A stretch of DNA of 64,000 nucleotides from a virus (lineage: Duplodnaviria; Caudoviricetes). Of the stretch, positions 2,327 through 47,398 are shown in pieces. The number at the start of each line of letters is the position of its first letter. Within the stretch, counting starts at the first letter, position 1. Location: IMG/VR virus record IMGVR_UViG_3300011008_000004, positions 1 to 64,000 of that record; one strand, written 5' to 3'. The notes below the pieces were generated by a model, which did not search any database, had not been told where the DNA came from, and saw only the letters and a list, made by a program, of their open reading frames with translations. The position numbers and the translations under genes are program-made.

Positions 2327-2469
2327 TCTAGAGAATAATTTAACGGGTTTTTTCATTTTTACGTGCTCTACCACTGAGCTACTCCCCGATGATCGGGGAG
2401 ATAGGACTTGAACCTATGACACCGTGCACCCAAAGCATTTTTTGAAGTAACCGTTAATCCGCTTCTAGA
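2327..2469 (-). ncRNA. Y-RNA (YrlA)-like RNA containing a circularly permuted tRNA-Pro(UGG)
   Basis: order is anticodon loop TTTGGGT, T arm ATAGG-TTCAAGT-CCTAT, CTCCCCGA-TCA-TCGGGGAG (acceptor closed by a loop), D arm GCTC-AGTGGTA-GAGC; enclosed by TTAACGG/CCGTTAA and TCTAGA stems. Confidence 0.75.
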
Positions 2470-3066: not shown

Positions 3067-3077
3067 ATAATTTAGCT
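3067..3077 (-). promoter_or_regulatory. putative phage late/alternative promoter motif AGCTAAATTAT
   Basis: same intergenic motif at 8717, 13857, 48897 and a variant at 52903. Confidence 0.5.
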
Positions 3078-3095
3078 TAATGCTAAGTATATACA

Positions 3096-6138: not shown

Positions 6139-6213
6139 ACTCTCATATAAGATTCAAACTTATATCTTCGACTTTTTGAAACATCGAGGCTCTACCAATT
6201 AAGCTATTGAGAG
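6139..6213 (-). ncRNA. tRNA-like RNA with 10-nt anticodon loop (GTTTCAAAAA)
   Basis: cloverleaf otherwise near canonical. Confidence 0.6.
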
Positions 6214-41059: not shown

Positions 41060-41212
41060 AGTAAATCTCCTTAATATAATTTACAATAATATTATAAATC
41101 ATTTAACTTAAAACGTCAACTAATTTATAACTACGCATAAAATAACGCATGTCAACATAGTCAACACGCGTTATTTTAATTATAAAGAAAAATAAATTAT
41201 ATTAAGTAAACT

Positions 41213-41488
41213 TTATTTTAATATTTTATCTATGCACTCTTGAATAAATGTGCAGTAGTCATCCCACTCTTCAATCGGTAATACGCCCATAGCTTGTTTT
41301 CTTAAAATAGATAATTCTTTAGACAGCGATATTTTTTCACGAATCAACTGTTCAATCTTTCTATCGTCATCAACTCTATCATTAAGTAACTTCATATCTT
41401 CACCTAAAGATATCAGTGAATCTATTGCGTCTATTTCTTGTGCATTAAATCCAAATCTATTTAATTTATTACGTAAAATTGATTTCAT
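41213..41488 (-). CDS. hypothetical protein directly downstream of DGR RT
   Basis: ORF track. Confidence 0.65.
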   Translation of the reverse strand: MKSILRNKLNRFGFNAQEIDAIDSLISLGEDMKLLNDRVDDDRKIEQLIREKISLSKELSILRKQAMGVLPIEEWDDYCTFIQECIDKILK

Positions 41489-41490
41489 AT

Positions 41491-42525
41491 TTACTATTCC
41501 TTAATTATTTTATATTTTAATAAACTATAATATAGCTCATTTAATAATTTTATTTTCTATAAATTATCTGCTCTTGCTAAATAAGTTCTATAGCAAGTAT
41601 AACTGGTTGTGAACTCATTAATAGACTACTTAAAAATCTTTTTCTTAAGTTTTCTTCGTAACTTTTTCAGATACTAAGTTGTAGCTATCTAATAAACTTT
41701 ACCTTTATCATTTAATAAAAATTTAAAACCTAAAAATGTGACTCCCTTATATAGATGTGTGTAACTTGTTTTATCTTTATTTATCTATAAATCAACATCA
41801 TTAAGTTGCTAAGCTATCTTATCTATGTATGTCTAAGGCGAGCTATTAACAATCAATATCATATCATCCATATATCTAATATAAAACTTAACCTTTAAAG
41901 TTTCTTTTATATAATGATCAAGTTTATCTAAATATATCAAACCTAAAATCTAAACCAGCTATGATCCTGCGTTATAACCTATAGCATTATCATTATCGTA
42001 AACTTTTAATATATCATGAACTTTTGAAAAATATTCATCTTGTAATTTCTGTTTAAACAATGCTTCGCTTCTATTATGTCTTATGTTATTATAATACTTT
42101 TTAACGTCTATATGAATTAAATAACCTTTATTATCTCTATAAATTTCATAATACTGCCTTAAAAATTTCTTTAGAGATTGTCTAGCATAATCTGTGCCTT
42201 TATGTTTCTAACAAGCACAATTATAAGTTATTAAAGATCTAGTCATTGTTGGATATATCACTAAATCATTTAATAGTCTCTAATATATTCTATCTCTAAA
42301 TGATATTGCAAGTACTTCTCGTTCTTTTGGATCATGTATTTTAAATTTTTTATGTTTACGCTCTACATATGTATTACTATTTATTTCAGAATATAACTTA
42401 TATGTTTCTTCTAATTGATTTAAAACGTAATGCTAAACTGTTTTCTTCCATTTTACACCGTGAGAACATTTATTGCAACTATCATACAAATTATTAAAAG
42501 TATAAATATTATTAATATCTTTCAT
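41491..42525 (-). CDS. DGR reverse transcriptase (344 aa, 13 in-frame TAG read as Gln)
   Basis: PKER..FRDRIY(Q)R, CAC(Q)KHKGT, DVKKYY, GS(Q)LV(Q), YIRYMDD, FLGF; missed entirely by code-11 ORF calling. Confidence 0.93.
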
Positions 42526-42692
42526 TGCAGATCAATAAGTATGTAACAATTATGTAACTAATCTTACGTGCAGAATTAATTATCTCACTATAAGACTAGT
42601 TACCTTGTTACACTTTGTTATTAAGAGAGTTAAGCTCCTTTTATGAAAACACAATATAACGTCACTATGTGATGTATCTTTTTATGCTCTAG

Positions 42693-42798
42693 TAAAATCG
42701 GAGAAACGCCATTACTATTGTATGCGTTGTTGTTGTTGAGGTTACCTGAAGTATTCAGATTCCACACATTGTTAGAATTACTACGATTAGGCGATCTA
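42693..42798 (-). repeat. DGR template repeat (TR)
   Basis: AAC/AAT-rich; differs from VR only at adenines apart from one codon indel. Confidence 0.95.
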
Positions 42799-42831
42799 CA
42801 GCGACACTCTCTATATTAGACTATTCAAAAT

Positions 42832-43247
42832 TTAATTATTTTGAATACGCTTAATATCACTATTAATCCACTTTAATGGTGTTTCTTTGATATTTAAAAC
42901 ATGACCAACAACATATTCTACACGATTACTCTTAGATGAAAAGCTTTCATGGCAATGTCCCATATAGACAAGAAATCTATGCAATTTTGTATCGCTAATC
43001 TCTATAATCTATATCGTTCATCTTTATTTTTATCATCTAATTTAGTGTTATTCGCTTTCCATAAATTAGTATGAATATCTATTGCTAACTAATTCAATCT
43101 ATCAGTTATAGACGTTTGAAATATTGGCAAAAATATTCTCTAATTCTTTGTTATCTTTAAAATATAAATAGCGAATGACTATGATTCCATAAATAAGTCT
43201 AATGTATTATCACTATTTTTATTACGTTTCCAAGCAGGTACTGACAT
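42832..43247 (-). CDS. avd: DGR accessory Avd-like protein (code 15) with apparent -1 frameshift near 42932
   Basis: MSVPAWKR..AN..R...(Q)..A..DIA..FHL; C-terminal RVEY..W.NSD.KR lies in the -1 frame; sits between VR and TR. Confidence 0.75.
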
Positions 43248-43259
43248 ATCACCTCTTAA

Positions 43260-43283
43260 TGTAATGCAAATGGTTGCATTACA
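43260..43283. promoter_or_regulatory. DGR target-recognition hairpin downstream of VR
   Basis: TGTAATGCAA-4nt-TTGCATTACA, 13 nt past target stop. Confidence 0.8.
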
Positions 43284-43296
43284 ATTAGTTAATTAT

Positions 43297-44940
43297 TTAA
43301 ATTGTAAAAAGCGGAGAAACGCCATAACTATAGTAAGCGCCGAAGTAGGTGCTGAGGGAACCTGAAGTAAGCAGACACCACACAAAGTGAGAACGACTAC
43401 GAGAAGGCGATCTAGTCCAAACATATTGATTAGACGTTTTAGCTGTAACTGACTACATTACACGATTACTATTTGCATCATTTTTTACAACACCACCATT
43501 TTTCCATAACCAATAATCTGTTACAGTGCCTTCATAGCTATTCACTGAACCCGCAAGTTCAGTGCCACTTGGTAGAGTAAATTGACAATATAATTTATTG
43601 TTAGGTAATTCATAGCCACTTCTATTATAAACGCCATAAGCTACATTATCTTCAATACAAGCCAAATCTTCTGATTTCCACCAGTCTTTAAAACCATGCT
43701 TATTTACGTATGAAGTAGCTAATACGTCGCCTACGTGAGAAGATGAAAACCAATCTAAACCAGAACCATTTAACCATTTATATAAATTACTATCTTCAAT
43801 TATATTTGAACCGTATCTCATTAGATTCATAGTTGAAGTGATACCTGAACCTGGAGCAAATGAGTGTTTAAATACGTATTTGCCCTCATTCGTATCTTCC
43901 CAAGTCTGTATACTATCACCAACTTGATAATCTTCACCTTTAGTTAAAGCCGTAAAACTTTGGTCACCTAAAACTTTATTAGTGCCATAATAGTAATATA
44001 AACTATCTTCAAATAATCCTGTCGCTTTTTCTTGTTCCCTTTCATCACACACTTTTGACACCAATGTGTAAGCTGACTGAATTAATGCACCAGTAAACGT
44101 AACATCTTCACCATCGACTTTTTTAATCATGTTGTCAGATACGTCTAAAACTCTAAACGGCATAGTGTAAGAAGTATTAGTATCTGGATCAGTTAATTCA
44201 CAGTCAAATGTAAATGAGTTGTTTTCATTACTTACTAACGCTTCTCTTTTCTACTCTAAAGTTATAGAATCTAAAGCTAAAAATTCTTTTACAGATTGAA
44301 TTGTCGTTATGCTAGATGTGTTATCATAAGTTACACTAACTGTAACATTGTCTGACAACGTACCCTACATATTGATCGCATGTGGATAAAAACAAACAAC
44401 ACTATCTAAAGTTATAGGTGAAGGACATACTACTTTATAAATCTAATTCAATGGTAGTGAGAAATTTATAGGCGCATTAGATGAAGTGCCTACAGCTATT
44501 TGATTATCATTATCATCTAAAATAGTAATGGTTACATCTGTTAATGGTGTTACTACTGAATCAATTAAAGTAGCTAATGACACAGAAAGTGTTCTCTTAG
44601 TTTCGCTTTTTACGTAATCTACAACAGCCTTACTAGTGGGCGTGTTATCATCTGTAGCGTTATCATCGATTTCTACATCAAATAGCTGTGTTGATGCATA
44701 CACTTTACCGCTCTATTCATATATTGTTTTAATATAGCATCCATCTAACCCAACTAAATCTACATTCAAATTGTTTATAGCTGCCTATCTATTTTGCGCT
44801 TCAACTGCACACACATTAATCATTGAACTATCGTCAGTTTTAATGTATAACTCACCTGTTTGCAAATTAACCACAGGTTGACCTATAGCTGAAGCATCAG
44901 CCGGTGTAGGTACACCTCTTTTTCTTCTAAGTTGTAACAT
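43297..44940 (-). CDS. DGR target: tail-fibre/receptor-binding protein (547 aa, 6 TAG) with C-terminal CLec-like variable domain
   Basis: track ORFs 44443 and 43453 join in frame via TAG; ends WTRSP...GVSPLFTI. Confidence 0.9.
43306..43414 (-). repeat. DGR variable repeat (VR)
   Basis: aligns to TR with 23 A-to-N substitutions and one extra codon. Confidence 0.95.
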
Positions 44941-44973: not shown

Positions 44974-46131
44974 TTACGGTATTAATGCAAATTTTTTATA
45001 AAATACGTATACCTCTGTTGGACTAGTGTCAGCGTTAGCTGCGTTATTTATAGTTACAGTTATACTACTAGACGCAGTATACAAACTAAAGCTTGTGTCA
45101 AATCCTGTAGTACAAACCTACCAACCTTTTCTAGAACCAGCCATTGAACCATCATAGTTAGGAATTAGTATTACAGGTGATCCCATACTAATAAATCCTG
45201 GATAGCCGTTGTACCATTCTCCACCTGATAGACTCATACTAGCGTTGGAATATCCCGTATACTGATAAACTATTAAGCATTCTTTAAGTCCTAAACTTAT
45301 AGTCTATGTACGAGATGCACATTTAGTCAATGTGCCATTAGCGCCTATTAATGCGCAATATAATGCAGCACTAAAAGCATTAGATACTTGATACGGATAT
45401 GCCCAATTAGGCCAGTTCCAACCATAAGTGTCAGTAGCACCATTATATGTAAGATACGCTTCATTATCAGCTAATGGACCACTTTTAAGTAAGAAATATT
45501 TACGCCAAGTGTACGTACCTTTAGACGTGTTAGCTGCGATACATGAAAATAAATCACCAGTAGATGTATTGCGATATAACTAACCTACAGTTCCAACTGT
45601 AGAAGTTGTTGGATCAGACGTGCCATAAATCAACTAAGATTGTATCTCTGATGTAATAGTAGATTCTAAGTTAGATTTTAAACTATAAGCACCTCCTGCT
45701 GTGAAATATAAATTACTCTCAGATGTAGGCGTATTTGTCTATGCATAATTCGCTACATTAGCTAAACCAACATCAGATTTAGTGATTGTAATATCTGAAC
45801 TTAACGCATGATTATTCACTTTTAAAGCTTTATTAACCTTGTTTTCATCTAATGAATTTATAGATACTTGTAAAGAAGATTCTGCTTGTTTAGATCTATT
45901 TATCTCATTATTTAAGTTATTAGATAATGTAAGATTTAAACTATTTATAGCATTCTAACGGCCATTAGCTTCTATATCACTAACATTTTTAAAAGATGTA
46001 ACACGACCTTGATTATCTTCAGATGTAGCTATGTACAATTCACCTGTGTCTAATCTAACAGCCGGTTGTCCTACATGCGAGAAATCATTAACTGTAGGTA
46101 ACCTATCTTTAAATCTTTTTAATAAAATCAT
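44974..46131 (-). CDS. tail-fibre-like protein (385 aa, 6 TAG)
   Basis: shared GQP.V.L.TGELYI N-terminus; VNNHALSSDITITKSDVGLANV fibre repeat. Confidence 0.85.
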
Positions 46132-46210
46132 AAATATTTACCTTTAAAAAATTTAATTTATGATTTTAACTAAAAAAAAAAACACGAAGACAAGTATGCA
46201 TATAAAATTA

Positions 46211-47305
46211 TCAATAATAGTTAGACCAGCAAAATATAGGTTTACCTTTAATGCTAGTTACTGATATATTCACATTACCTGTAGATACTAGTGAAAATGA
46301 AAGTGTATATGTACTAGATGACGTAGTTATTTTAATTGGTAAATCAGCTTCCCATAAACCTCCACCACCAGCGGCAGAAGCTCCGCCACTACAGTGCATC
46401 ATTAAATCAAAAGACAATCCGCTAGGTAACCAACTTGGTTTAGTATATGAATAAGTTTTAGTTGTAGTCTTATTGGCCGTTACAGATATGATACTACCAG
46501 TGCCTGCGGTCATAGCTATATTCAAATCTAACCAACAAAAACGTCCTTCTTTACGTAAAGAATGATTATCTATGCTTTTGGAGCCAGTAGCGCTGTCAAA
46601 TAGTTGCCAAATATCTACTGACTCCGAATTAAAACCCAAATTAGTTAACCTCGATTCTATAGAACCTTTAGTTGAATCATACCCAGATAACGCTGTCTAA
46701 TTAGCGCTATTTAATGAAAATGTGGTATCAGTCAATGATAAGCCAGTTCCAGCTATATATGTAGTATTAATCCAAGGAACAGTTACATAAGCTTTATTCT
46801 CTGCTCCAAGCTTAACAGCATAATGCTGAGCAGTCTCACTATAACCAATTTTAATACCACCTAGAGCTGTCACAGTCGCTGATGGTAAAGTATAAACAGT
46901 ATCTGTAAATTTTGCATCTGAAGGAACACTTTTAGATATAGTATAACTTATCTATTTTATAGAACCATCACTATCAACATACGTAGGCTATATGGTAGAA
47001 CCTATCATAGGATGTGATGAATAAGTCCCAACTTTTGATGCATAAGAAGAATTAGTTGATTTAAATGATGCGTATGTGCCATCAGTTATTTTAACAATTT
47101 CTGTATCTGTATAATTTTTAGCATTAGATTCCGCTGTATTAGCTCTAGTTATAGATAGTGAATCTACTACACTACAAACATTTTTAATGGTTGAATTATC
47201 TGTTTTAATGTATAATTCACCTGTATTCAAATTCACTATAGGCTGTCCTACATCACTAAAATCTGAAGAAGTAGGAACGCCTTTCTTTCGTCTAAATAAA
47301 ATCAT
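46211..47305 (-). CDS. tail-fibre-like protein (364 aa, 3 TAG)
   Basis: same N-terminus; SVPSDAKFTDT, YTLP.AT...LGGIKIG, VPW.NTTY fibre motifs. Confidence 0.85.
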
Positions 47306-47367
47306 TATTAAATCTCCAATATGAATAAATTAACTAAAAAAAACCTGAACATCAAAATGACATAAAT

Positions 47368-47398
47368 AAAAGACTGTCTTTTTAGACAGTCTTTTTTT
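47368..47398. terminator. intrinsic terminator
   Basis: AAAGACTGTCT/AGACAGTCTTT with A/T tails. Confidence 0.75.

Follow-up and report, generated by a model that had tools for sequence, protein, structure and literature searches.

Phages that reassign the amber stop codon TAG are known to carry diversity-generating retroelements (DGRs). In Zeta crAss-like phages with a tRNA(CUA), amber codons lie within the genes for the DGR reverse transcriptase (RT), which hampers the detection of their DGRs (PMC12386605, 2025). Stop-codon recoding itself has been proposed by Borges et al. as a regulator of late genes, and in-frame stops were proposed to delay a homing endonuclease until late infection (bioRxiv 10.1101/2021.08.26.457843). 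Among the domains that DGRs diversify is DUF6273, a C-lectin-like target domain with the variable repeat (VR) at its end (PMC10743442, PMC11792537). Here, we describe a cassette in a 64,000-nt stretch of phage DNA (the window), which is the first 64 kb of the complete, 214,257-bp virus record IMGVR_UViG_3300011008_000004, a gut-type phage with direct terminal repeats. Read on the minus strand with TAG as glutamine (Gln, Q), positions 41491-44940 of the window comprise a fibre target gene with a VR, a hairpin, avd, the template repeat (TR), a conserved spacer, and an RT gene. We read this cassette as a DGR of the type found in Bordetella phage BPP-1, situated in a phage in which TAG encodes Gln, with enzymes that depend on suppression of this codon; we put the probability of this reading at roughly 0.8. 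Coordinates below refer to the window, unless given as genome positions.

The RT and avd genes are hidden from standard gene calling, as had been claimed in a preliminary description that was made from the letters of the window. Under translation table 11, the RT region contains no minus-strand open reading frame (ORF) of at least 40 aa, and the target is split into pieces. The same description had proposed a table 15-style translation and a search with RT hidden Markov models as a check, and this recovers the RT, avd, and target ORFs, the first of which matches RVT_1. The RT gene (41491-42525, minus strand) encodes 344 aa, including the YMDD and GSQxxQ motifs, and contains 13 in-frame TAG codons. 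This number had been presented as the highest count of any gene, which is true within the window, but a single gene outside it reaches 14. Besides RVT_1 (E 7e-11), the RT matches phrog_1423 (E 2e-60) and the PDB chain 8ub7_A (328 aa; E 2e-20). The database title of the latter says only 'Reverse transcriptase', and we take it to be the Bordetella bRT. Matches obtained by tblastn with the RT are phage DGR RTs, and the sequence contains both signatures that define the DGR clade of RTs: YxDD and (I/L/V)GxxxSQ.

The identity of the residue encoded by TAG follows from an alignment of the RT with 22 relatives found in IMG/VR that use the standard code and are free of in-frame stops. At position 192, which is TAG here, all 22 relatives have Gln, and at position 82 (RDRxYQR), also TAG, Gln is found in 20 of them. 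TAG at position 106 (ACQKGKG) corresponds to Gln in the ten closest relatives, and TAG at position 189 to Gln in the nine closest. Positions 189 and 192 are the two Q residues of the diagnostic GSQxxQ motif (GYNAGSQLVQ), both of them TAG, and YMDD is intact. The earlier observation that several TAGs lie in conserved RT motifs is thus borne out, as they fall on Gln residues of RDRxYQR, ACQKGKG, and GSQxxQ. In avd, Q82 is invariant among homologues and is TAG here. Judging from the conserved Q sites in the 22 standard-code RTs and the avd homologues, together with the features of the suppressor tRNA, TAG is Gln in this phage; a residue other than Gln was considered and ruled out by the RT alignment with standard-code relatives.

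Recoding concerns about a third of the genes in the phage genome, which has 29.7% G+C and almost every gene on the minus strand. Treating TAG as a sense codon lifts the coding density from 76% to 90%, with no comparable gain for TGA (78%). In a gene set built so that no gene can end in TAG, 264 in-frame TAGs are spread over 84 of the 267 minus-strand genes. Two genes for tRNA(CUA) are present, both on the minus strand: suppressor tRNA(CUA) no. 1 with Gln-type features (2606-2680), and no. 2, a 98-nt call at genome positions 163136-163233, inside a TAG-rich structural block. The 5′ half of the tRNA(CUA) is UGGGAAAUCGCCAAGUGGUAAGGC, with a D-arm and an acceptor that look like the Gln type, the features of E. 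coli tRNA-Gln serving as the reference for this assignment. A release factor 2 (RF2) with SPF and GGQ motifs is encoded at genome positions 76081-77181 (minus strand) by a single ORF without TAG.

The TR (42694-42798, minus strand) is 105 nt long and includes 35 adenines and 13 AAY codons, whereas the VR (43307-43414, minus strand) is 108 nt long and takes up the final ~36 codons of the target. At the non-adenine positions of the TR, 70 out of 70 nucleotides are identical in the VR. Every one of the 22 TR-to-VR substitutions is at a TR adenine (11 A>T, six A>C, and five A>G), with 13 adenines unchanged, and the chance of such an adenine-only pattern is ~3e-11. The adenine-only pattern had been described before on the basis of 23 substitutions; the pattern stands, and the count becomes 22 plus a 3-nt indel. 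The VR is one codon longer, with five codons (AGC ACC TAC TTC GGC) aligned to four AAC in the TR. Because the length of the TR matches both repeats of the closest relative (see below) as well as the VR of most target homologues, the extra codon probably sits in the VR. Slippage of the RT on the AAC run would produce such a codon, the alternative being a later deletion in the TR. At their 3′ ends, TR and VR share GGCGTTTCTCCG, directly after which divergence begins, making this a putative G+C-rich end of the initiation of mutagenic homing (IMH) type. A search of the whole genome found no second VR, leaving a single TR/VR pair.

The preliminary description had also held that mutagenesis cannot create stop codons from the TR. 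This is in line with the 13 AAY codons, but an AGA at the 5′ edge of the TR could become TGA. Moreover, such protection from stops is a generic property of DGRs and is not tied to recoding. Between the VR and avd lies a hairpin, whose stem of 10 bp carries a loop of 4 nt (43260-43283, minus strand; z -2.75), in the position of the BPP-1 hairpin/cruciform, and a hairpin is found there in the closest relative, too. The spacer between TR and RT (42526-42693, minus strand) presumably forms the 3′ portion of the RNA made by the DGR. Conservation at the nucleotide level in the closest relative covers the first ~110 nt after the TR, and the spacer contains a small conserved hairpin at 42659-42675.

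This closest relative, IMGVR_UViG_3300033463_000483, is a 36.9-kb contig of 33% G+C with no in-frame TAG. Its gene order is the same: target, hairpin, intact avd, TR, spacer, RT, and an ORF of 91 aa. The RTs of the relative and the window are 58% identical. Two overlapping contig ends of the relative (L083:6160-6391 and L098:1-260) represent two VR alleles with identical flanks, which differ at 18 positions, 18/18 at TR adenines. As judged from these sequences, this is DGR diversification within a sample, at which the assembly broke in the VR. The two adenine-only VR alleles therefore indicate that this DGR lineage is active in nature. All 12 Gln codons in the RT of the relative are CAA, and of the eight Gln positions that it shares with the RT in the window, seven are TAG here (p 0.006). 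The module, being common to a standard-code relative, presumably became 'amberised' after its entry into the recoded lineage. Directly after the RT, at the same position as in the relative, the window also encodes a helical 91-aa protein without TAG (41213-41488, minus strand). It is 36% identical to its counterpart (E 1e-10, both 91 aa; L098:1872-2147) and may be a fifth gene of the cassette, although its membership is uncertain.

The gene for the accessory variability determinant, avd (42832-43247, minus strand), has four TAG codons and is interrupted by a 1-nt frameshift at 42930-42935. Without correction, the ORF covers 42894-43247 and encodes 117 aa with five TAGs; the '4-5 TAG' reported earlier thus corresponds to four in the corrected gene and five in the frame-0 ORF. 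Frame 0 encodes residues 1-105, which run to ...AFHL and are homologous to relatives, whereas the last 33 residues (helix 4), starting with KSNRVEYVVG, are in the -1 frame, which ends at a stop at 42832-42834, for a total of 138 aa. The homologues used here (P0003-P0005, with ~57% identity, and the avd genes adjoining related RTs) have 123-151 aa and extend for ~30 residues beyond the position at which the ORF of the window diverges. Searches of the avd ORF against Pfam, NCBIfam, and PHROGs gave no match, and its profile found nothing useful among PDB sequences. When the profile of the avd group was compared with the canonical PF22296 bAvd group, hhalign returned a probability of 95% (E 3e-8). 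An AlphaFold2 (AF2) model of homologue P0003 (predicted local distance difference test (pLDDT) score of 84) forms a four-helix bundle, in which the frameshift hits the start of helix 4. The model is closest to 2GSC and 2RLD, with template modelling (TM) scores of 0.83-0.87, and bAvd 4DWL comes at rank 33. The title of 2RLD refers to the S23 ribosomal protein family, which we take to belong to the Avd superfamily.

Comparison with the homologues suggests a contraction of an A-run from AAA to AA, which would be an error of 1 nt in the assembly or else an inactivation of recent date. A programmed -1 frameshift was rejected, as there is no slippery X XXY YYZ at CAT CTA AGA and the shift is absent from all homologues. 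No near-identical genome was found, either by an exact scan of viral contigs for the flank of the frameshift or by an exact scan of metagenome contigs for the adenine-masked TR/VR pattern, although very similar records may lie outside the reach of these scans. The cassette had been called a complete DGR, and all parts are indeed present, but the frameshift in avd and the unequal lengths of TR and VR mean that the assembled copy is incomplete.

The DGR target (43297-44940, minus strand) is a tail-fibre-like protein of 547 aa with six in-frame TAGs, the number stated before, and with a putative C-terminal DUF6273-type (C-lectin-like) domain that contains the VR. The domain is recognizable through homologues: eight out of eight (42-56% identity) carry PF19789 (DUF6273) at their C-terminus, and the target itself scores below the Pfam threshold. 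Direct searches of the target against Pfam, NCBIfam, and PHROGs gave no match, and its profile found nothing useful among PDB sequences. A conserved framework, RSPxRS...W...G...P.FTI, runs through the domain, with variable positions between its elements. Two fibre paralogues lie upstream of the target (44974-47305, minus strand; 385 aa with six TAGs and 364 aa with three TAGs) and form a TAG-rich island with the DGR. The N-terminus of the target is common to both, with MI(L/Q)...RK in all three fibre genes of the window, and one of the paralogues has weak matches to tail-fibre PHROGs. Both paralogues also share an upstream motif with a fourth gene at genome positions 164.6-166.1 kb, in the late block. 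The sequence GTTTTTTTT(T)AGTTAA has exactly three coding-strand copies, all of them situated upstream of fibre paralogues (window 46166-46181 and 47330-47345; genome 166092-166107), and may represent either a leader that was duplicated or a regulatory site specific to fibre genes.

The first in-frame TAG is reached at codon 31 in the RT, codon 23 in avd, and codon 52 in the target, and all three proteins therefore depend on amber suppression. In a standard-code host, translation of the RT, Avd, and the fibre would stop at these codons until the suppressor tRNA is available. Synthesis of cDNA and retrohoming would be confined to the recoded phase of the infection, which is probably middle or late. 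With 13 serial ambers, the yield of RT would scale as (suppression efficiency)^13, so that these ambers would throttle the dose in addition to setting the time. The preliminary description had proposed that the code switch gates receptor diversification. The dependence on suppression that this idea presupposes is upheld, while a gating function that has evolved as such goes beyond it and is conjectural. All genes of the phage that contain TAG share this dependence, which corresponds to the published general model (bioRxiv 10.1101/2021.08.26.457843).

Indications of timing come from two classes of promoter-like motifs. Intergenic almost without exception, a sigma-70-like motif, TTGACx-N17-TATAAT, stands before TAG-bearing genes in six out of 23 cases, compared with 17 out of 25 for a second motif, RCTAAAWTA (Fisher p 0.005). 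Example sites of the two classes are found at 41091-41119, 48905, and 3069-3078. A strong terminator-like hairpin with a 12-bp stem lies at 47368-47395, just upstream of the fibre/DGR unit, which begins after it and ends just before the sigma-70-like site at 41119, with no sigma-70-like site inside the unit. The motif nearest upstream of tRNA(CUA) no. 1 belongs to the second class. Regarding the host, the RF2 of the phage is ~60% identical to RF2 of metagenome-assembled genomes of Christensenellales/Clostridia, making a host from the Clostridia/Christensenellales lineage likely on sequence grounds. Both Christensenellales/Clostridia genomes that were checked encode a second class-I factor, and the PET...GGQ (RF1-type) motif was recovered in one of the two.

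Some further RNA-like features accompany the tRNA(CUA) in the window. At 2334-2442 (minus strand), ~170 nt downstream of the tRNA(CUA), tRNA-like halves occur in permuted order, with the T-arm and 3′ acceptor followed by the 5′ acceptor and D-arm. This region has a full-length match to YrlA, of the Y RNA-like family, that is below threshold (41 bits against a gathering threshold of 69; E 2e-7). At 6139-6213 (minus strand), Rfam identifies a tRNA (40.7 bits) that is not listed by ARAGORN. A search of the genome for Terminase_6N gave no match.

In TAG content, the two DGR enzymes stand out from the rest of the genome. With 4.3% for avd and 3.8% for the RT, they have the highest TAG densities genome-wide among genes of at least 100 codons. 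TAG makes up 13 of the 19 Gln codons of the RT (68%), compared with 38% when all recoded genes are pooled (binomial p 0.007). These tests concern one genome with small numbers and were made post hoc, and the TAG excess hints at selection. Other TAG-dense genes encode a NUMOD3-motif protein (genome 108169-109065), a RecU-like nuclease (genome 105488-105973), and a C2H2 zinc-finger protein (genome 68159-69448; all three on the minus strand); these genes are of the mobile-element or nuclease type and are located among TAG-free genes.

Several points weigh against our reading of the locus as a suppression-dependent DGR. With the avd frameshift and the mismatch in length between TR and VR, this copy is at most a candidate for a currently active element; the VR domain has a putative fold, with a pLDDT below 50 in the AF2 model; the host was deduced from RF2 similarity and not from spacers or a prophage; and the timing of the tRNA(CUA) comes from motifs alone. 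If the first of these points is taken at face value, the cassette may be a recently inactivated relic, a DGR that no longer works in this phage. Loss of Avd helix 4 through a single nucleotide would fit this explanation, as Avd is required in the BPP-1 system, and so would the one-codon difference between VR and TR. We nevertheless find it doubtful, since not one of 70 non-adenine positions differs between the repeats, the RT is full-length with its catalytic motifs present, and the spacer is conserved, while the contracted A-run could be an assembly error and the extra VR codon fits RT slippage. Far less probable still is that the host itself reads TAG as Gln, which would mean that there is no switch at all. 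Nothing was found in its favour. The phage brings two tRNA(CUA) and an RF2, and 183 of its 267 genes are free of TAG; in addition, a factor of the RF1 type occurs in the lineage proposed for the host, and recoded gut phages have been reported in standard-code Firmicutes and Bacteroidetes (bioRxiv 10.1101/2021.08.26.457843).

As for the role of the ambers, the explanation that comes closest to an even chance is a neutral one: the cassette lies in a recoded unit, TAG accumulates by drift in weakly expressed genes, and there is no function specific to the DGR. Such a by-product is consistent with the presence of TAG in 84 genes, the neighbouring fibres included, it is already predicted by the general model of Borges et al. 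(bioRxiv 10.1101/2021.08.26.457843), and it has a parallel in the ambers of 7/18 Zeta crAss DGR RT genes, for which no special role was claimed (PMC12386605). It accounts less well for the TAG excess over pooled recoded genes and for the near-complete replacement at conserved Gln sites. These are the observations that speak for an adaptive gate or throttle, in which selection packed TAG into the DGR enzymes, restricting retrohoming in time and dose. Not only do avd and the RT have the highest TAG densities, with a TAG share in the RT above that of pooled recoded genes, but seven out of eight shared Gln are TAG here versus CAA in the relative, and a change from CAA to TAG takes two steps. Furthermore, the other TAG-dense genes are nuclease- or homing-endonuclease-like, and large TAG-free genes exist in the late block. 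Against this, the evidence consists of small numbers from a single genome analysed after the fact, genes of low expression may merely tolerate an inefficient codon, fibre paralogues and many structural genes carry TAG too, and a broken avd fits poorly with strong current selection. We therefore regard an adaptive gate as tentative and on the unlikely side. A wider version of it, in which the code switch throttles self-directed DNA-modifying enzymes, seems a little less likely again; here, TAG would be selectively concentrated in RT, Avd, and nuclease or homing-endonuclease-like genes, and the ambers would set both a time window and a very low dose of retrohoming.

Both the principle and the co-occurrence of recoding and a DGR have been published, and the cassette is no new kind of system. 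What it shows is that DGRs of recoded phages escape both standard gene calling and DGR finders; here, even the diagnostic SQ glutamine is TAG. Together with its visibly diversifying, standard-code sister (58% RT identity), it forms a natural pair for the question of amber timing and attenuation. Compared with the DGR of Bordetella phage BPP-1 (mtd-avd-TR-brt), the cassette has the same order, adenine-only mutagenesis, AAY-rich TR codons, and a predicted four-helix-bundle Avd, the last of these modelled here on homologue P0003. Unlike BPP-1, it has a target that is probably of the DUF6273 type rather than Mtd and an Avd from a divergent subgroup without a direct PF22296 match, and it resides in a 214-kb recoded phage, where all three genes need amber suppression and avd is frameshifted. 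DGR phages with a DUF6273 target, from Faecalibacterium and other gut Firmicutes, are small, temperate, and of standard code (PMC10743442, PMC11792537). The DGRs that Zeta crAss-like phages carry likewise have a recoded RT; their targets are C-lectin tail-fibre proteins, and they mostly lack the avd that is present here (PMC12386605). Those phages belong to Crassvirales and infect Bacteroidota, whereas the 214-kb phage described here likely has a host among the Clostridia. Moreover, the TAG density of the present cassette tops its genome, and the Zeta study makes no claim about timing (PMC12386605). Like the phages of Borges et al., this phage has standard-code early and code-change genes (suppressor tRNA, release factor) beside scattered recoded structural modules. 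Whereas their study mentions DGRs or reverse transcriptases zero times and applies the proposed delay to a homing endonuclease, the enzyme that would be delayed here is a mutagenic RT.

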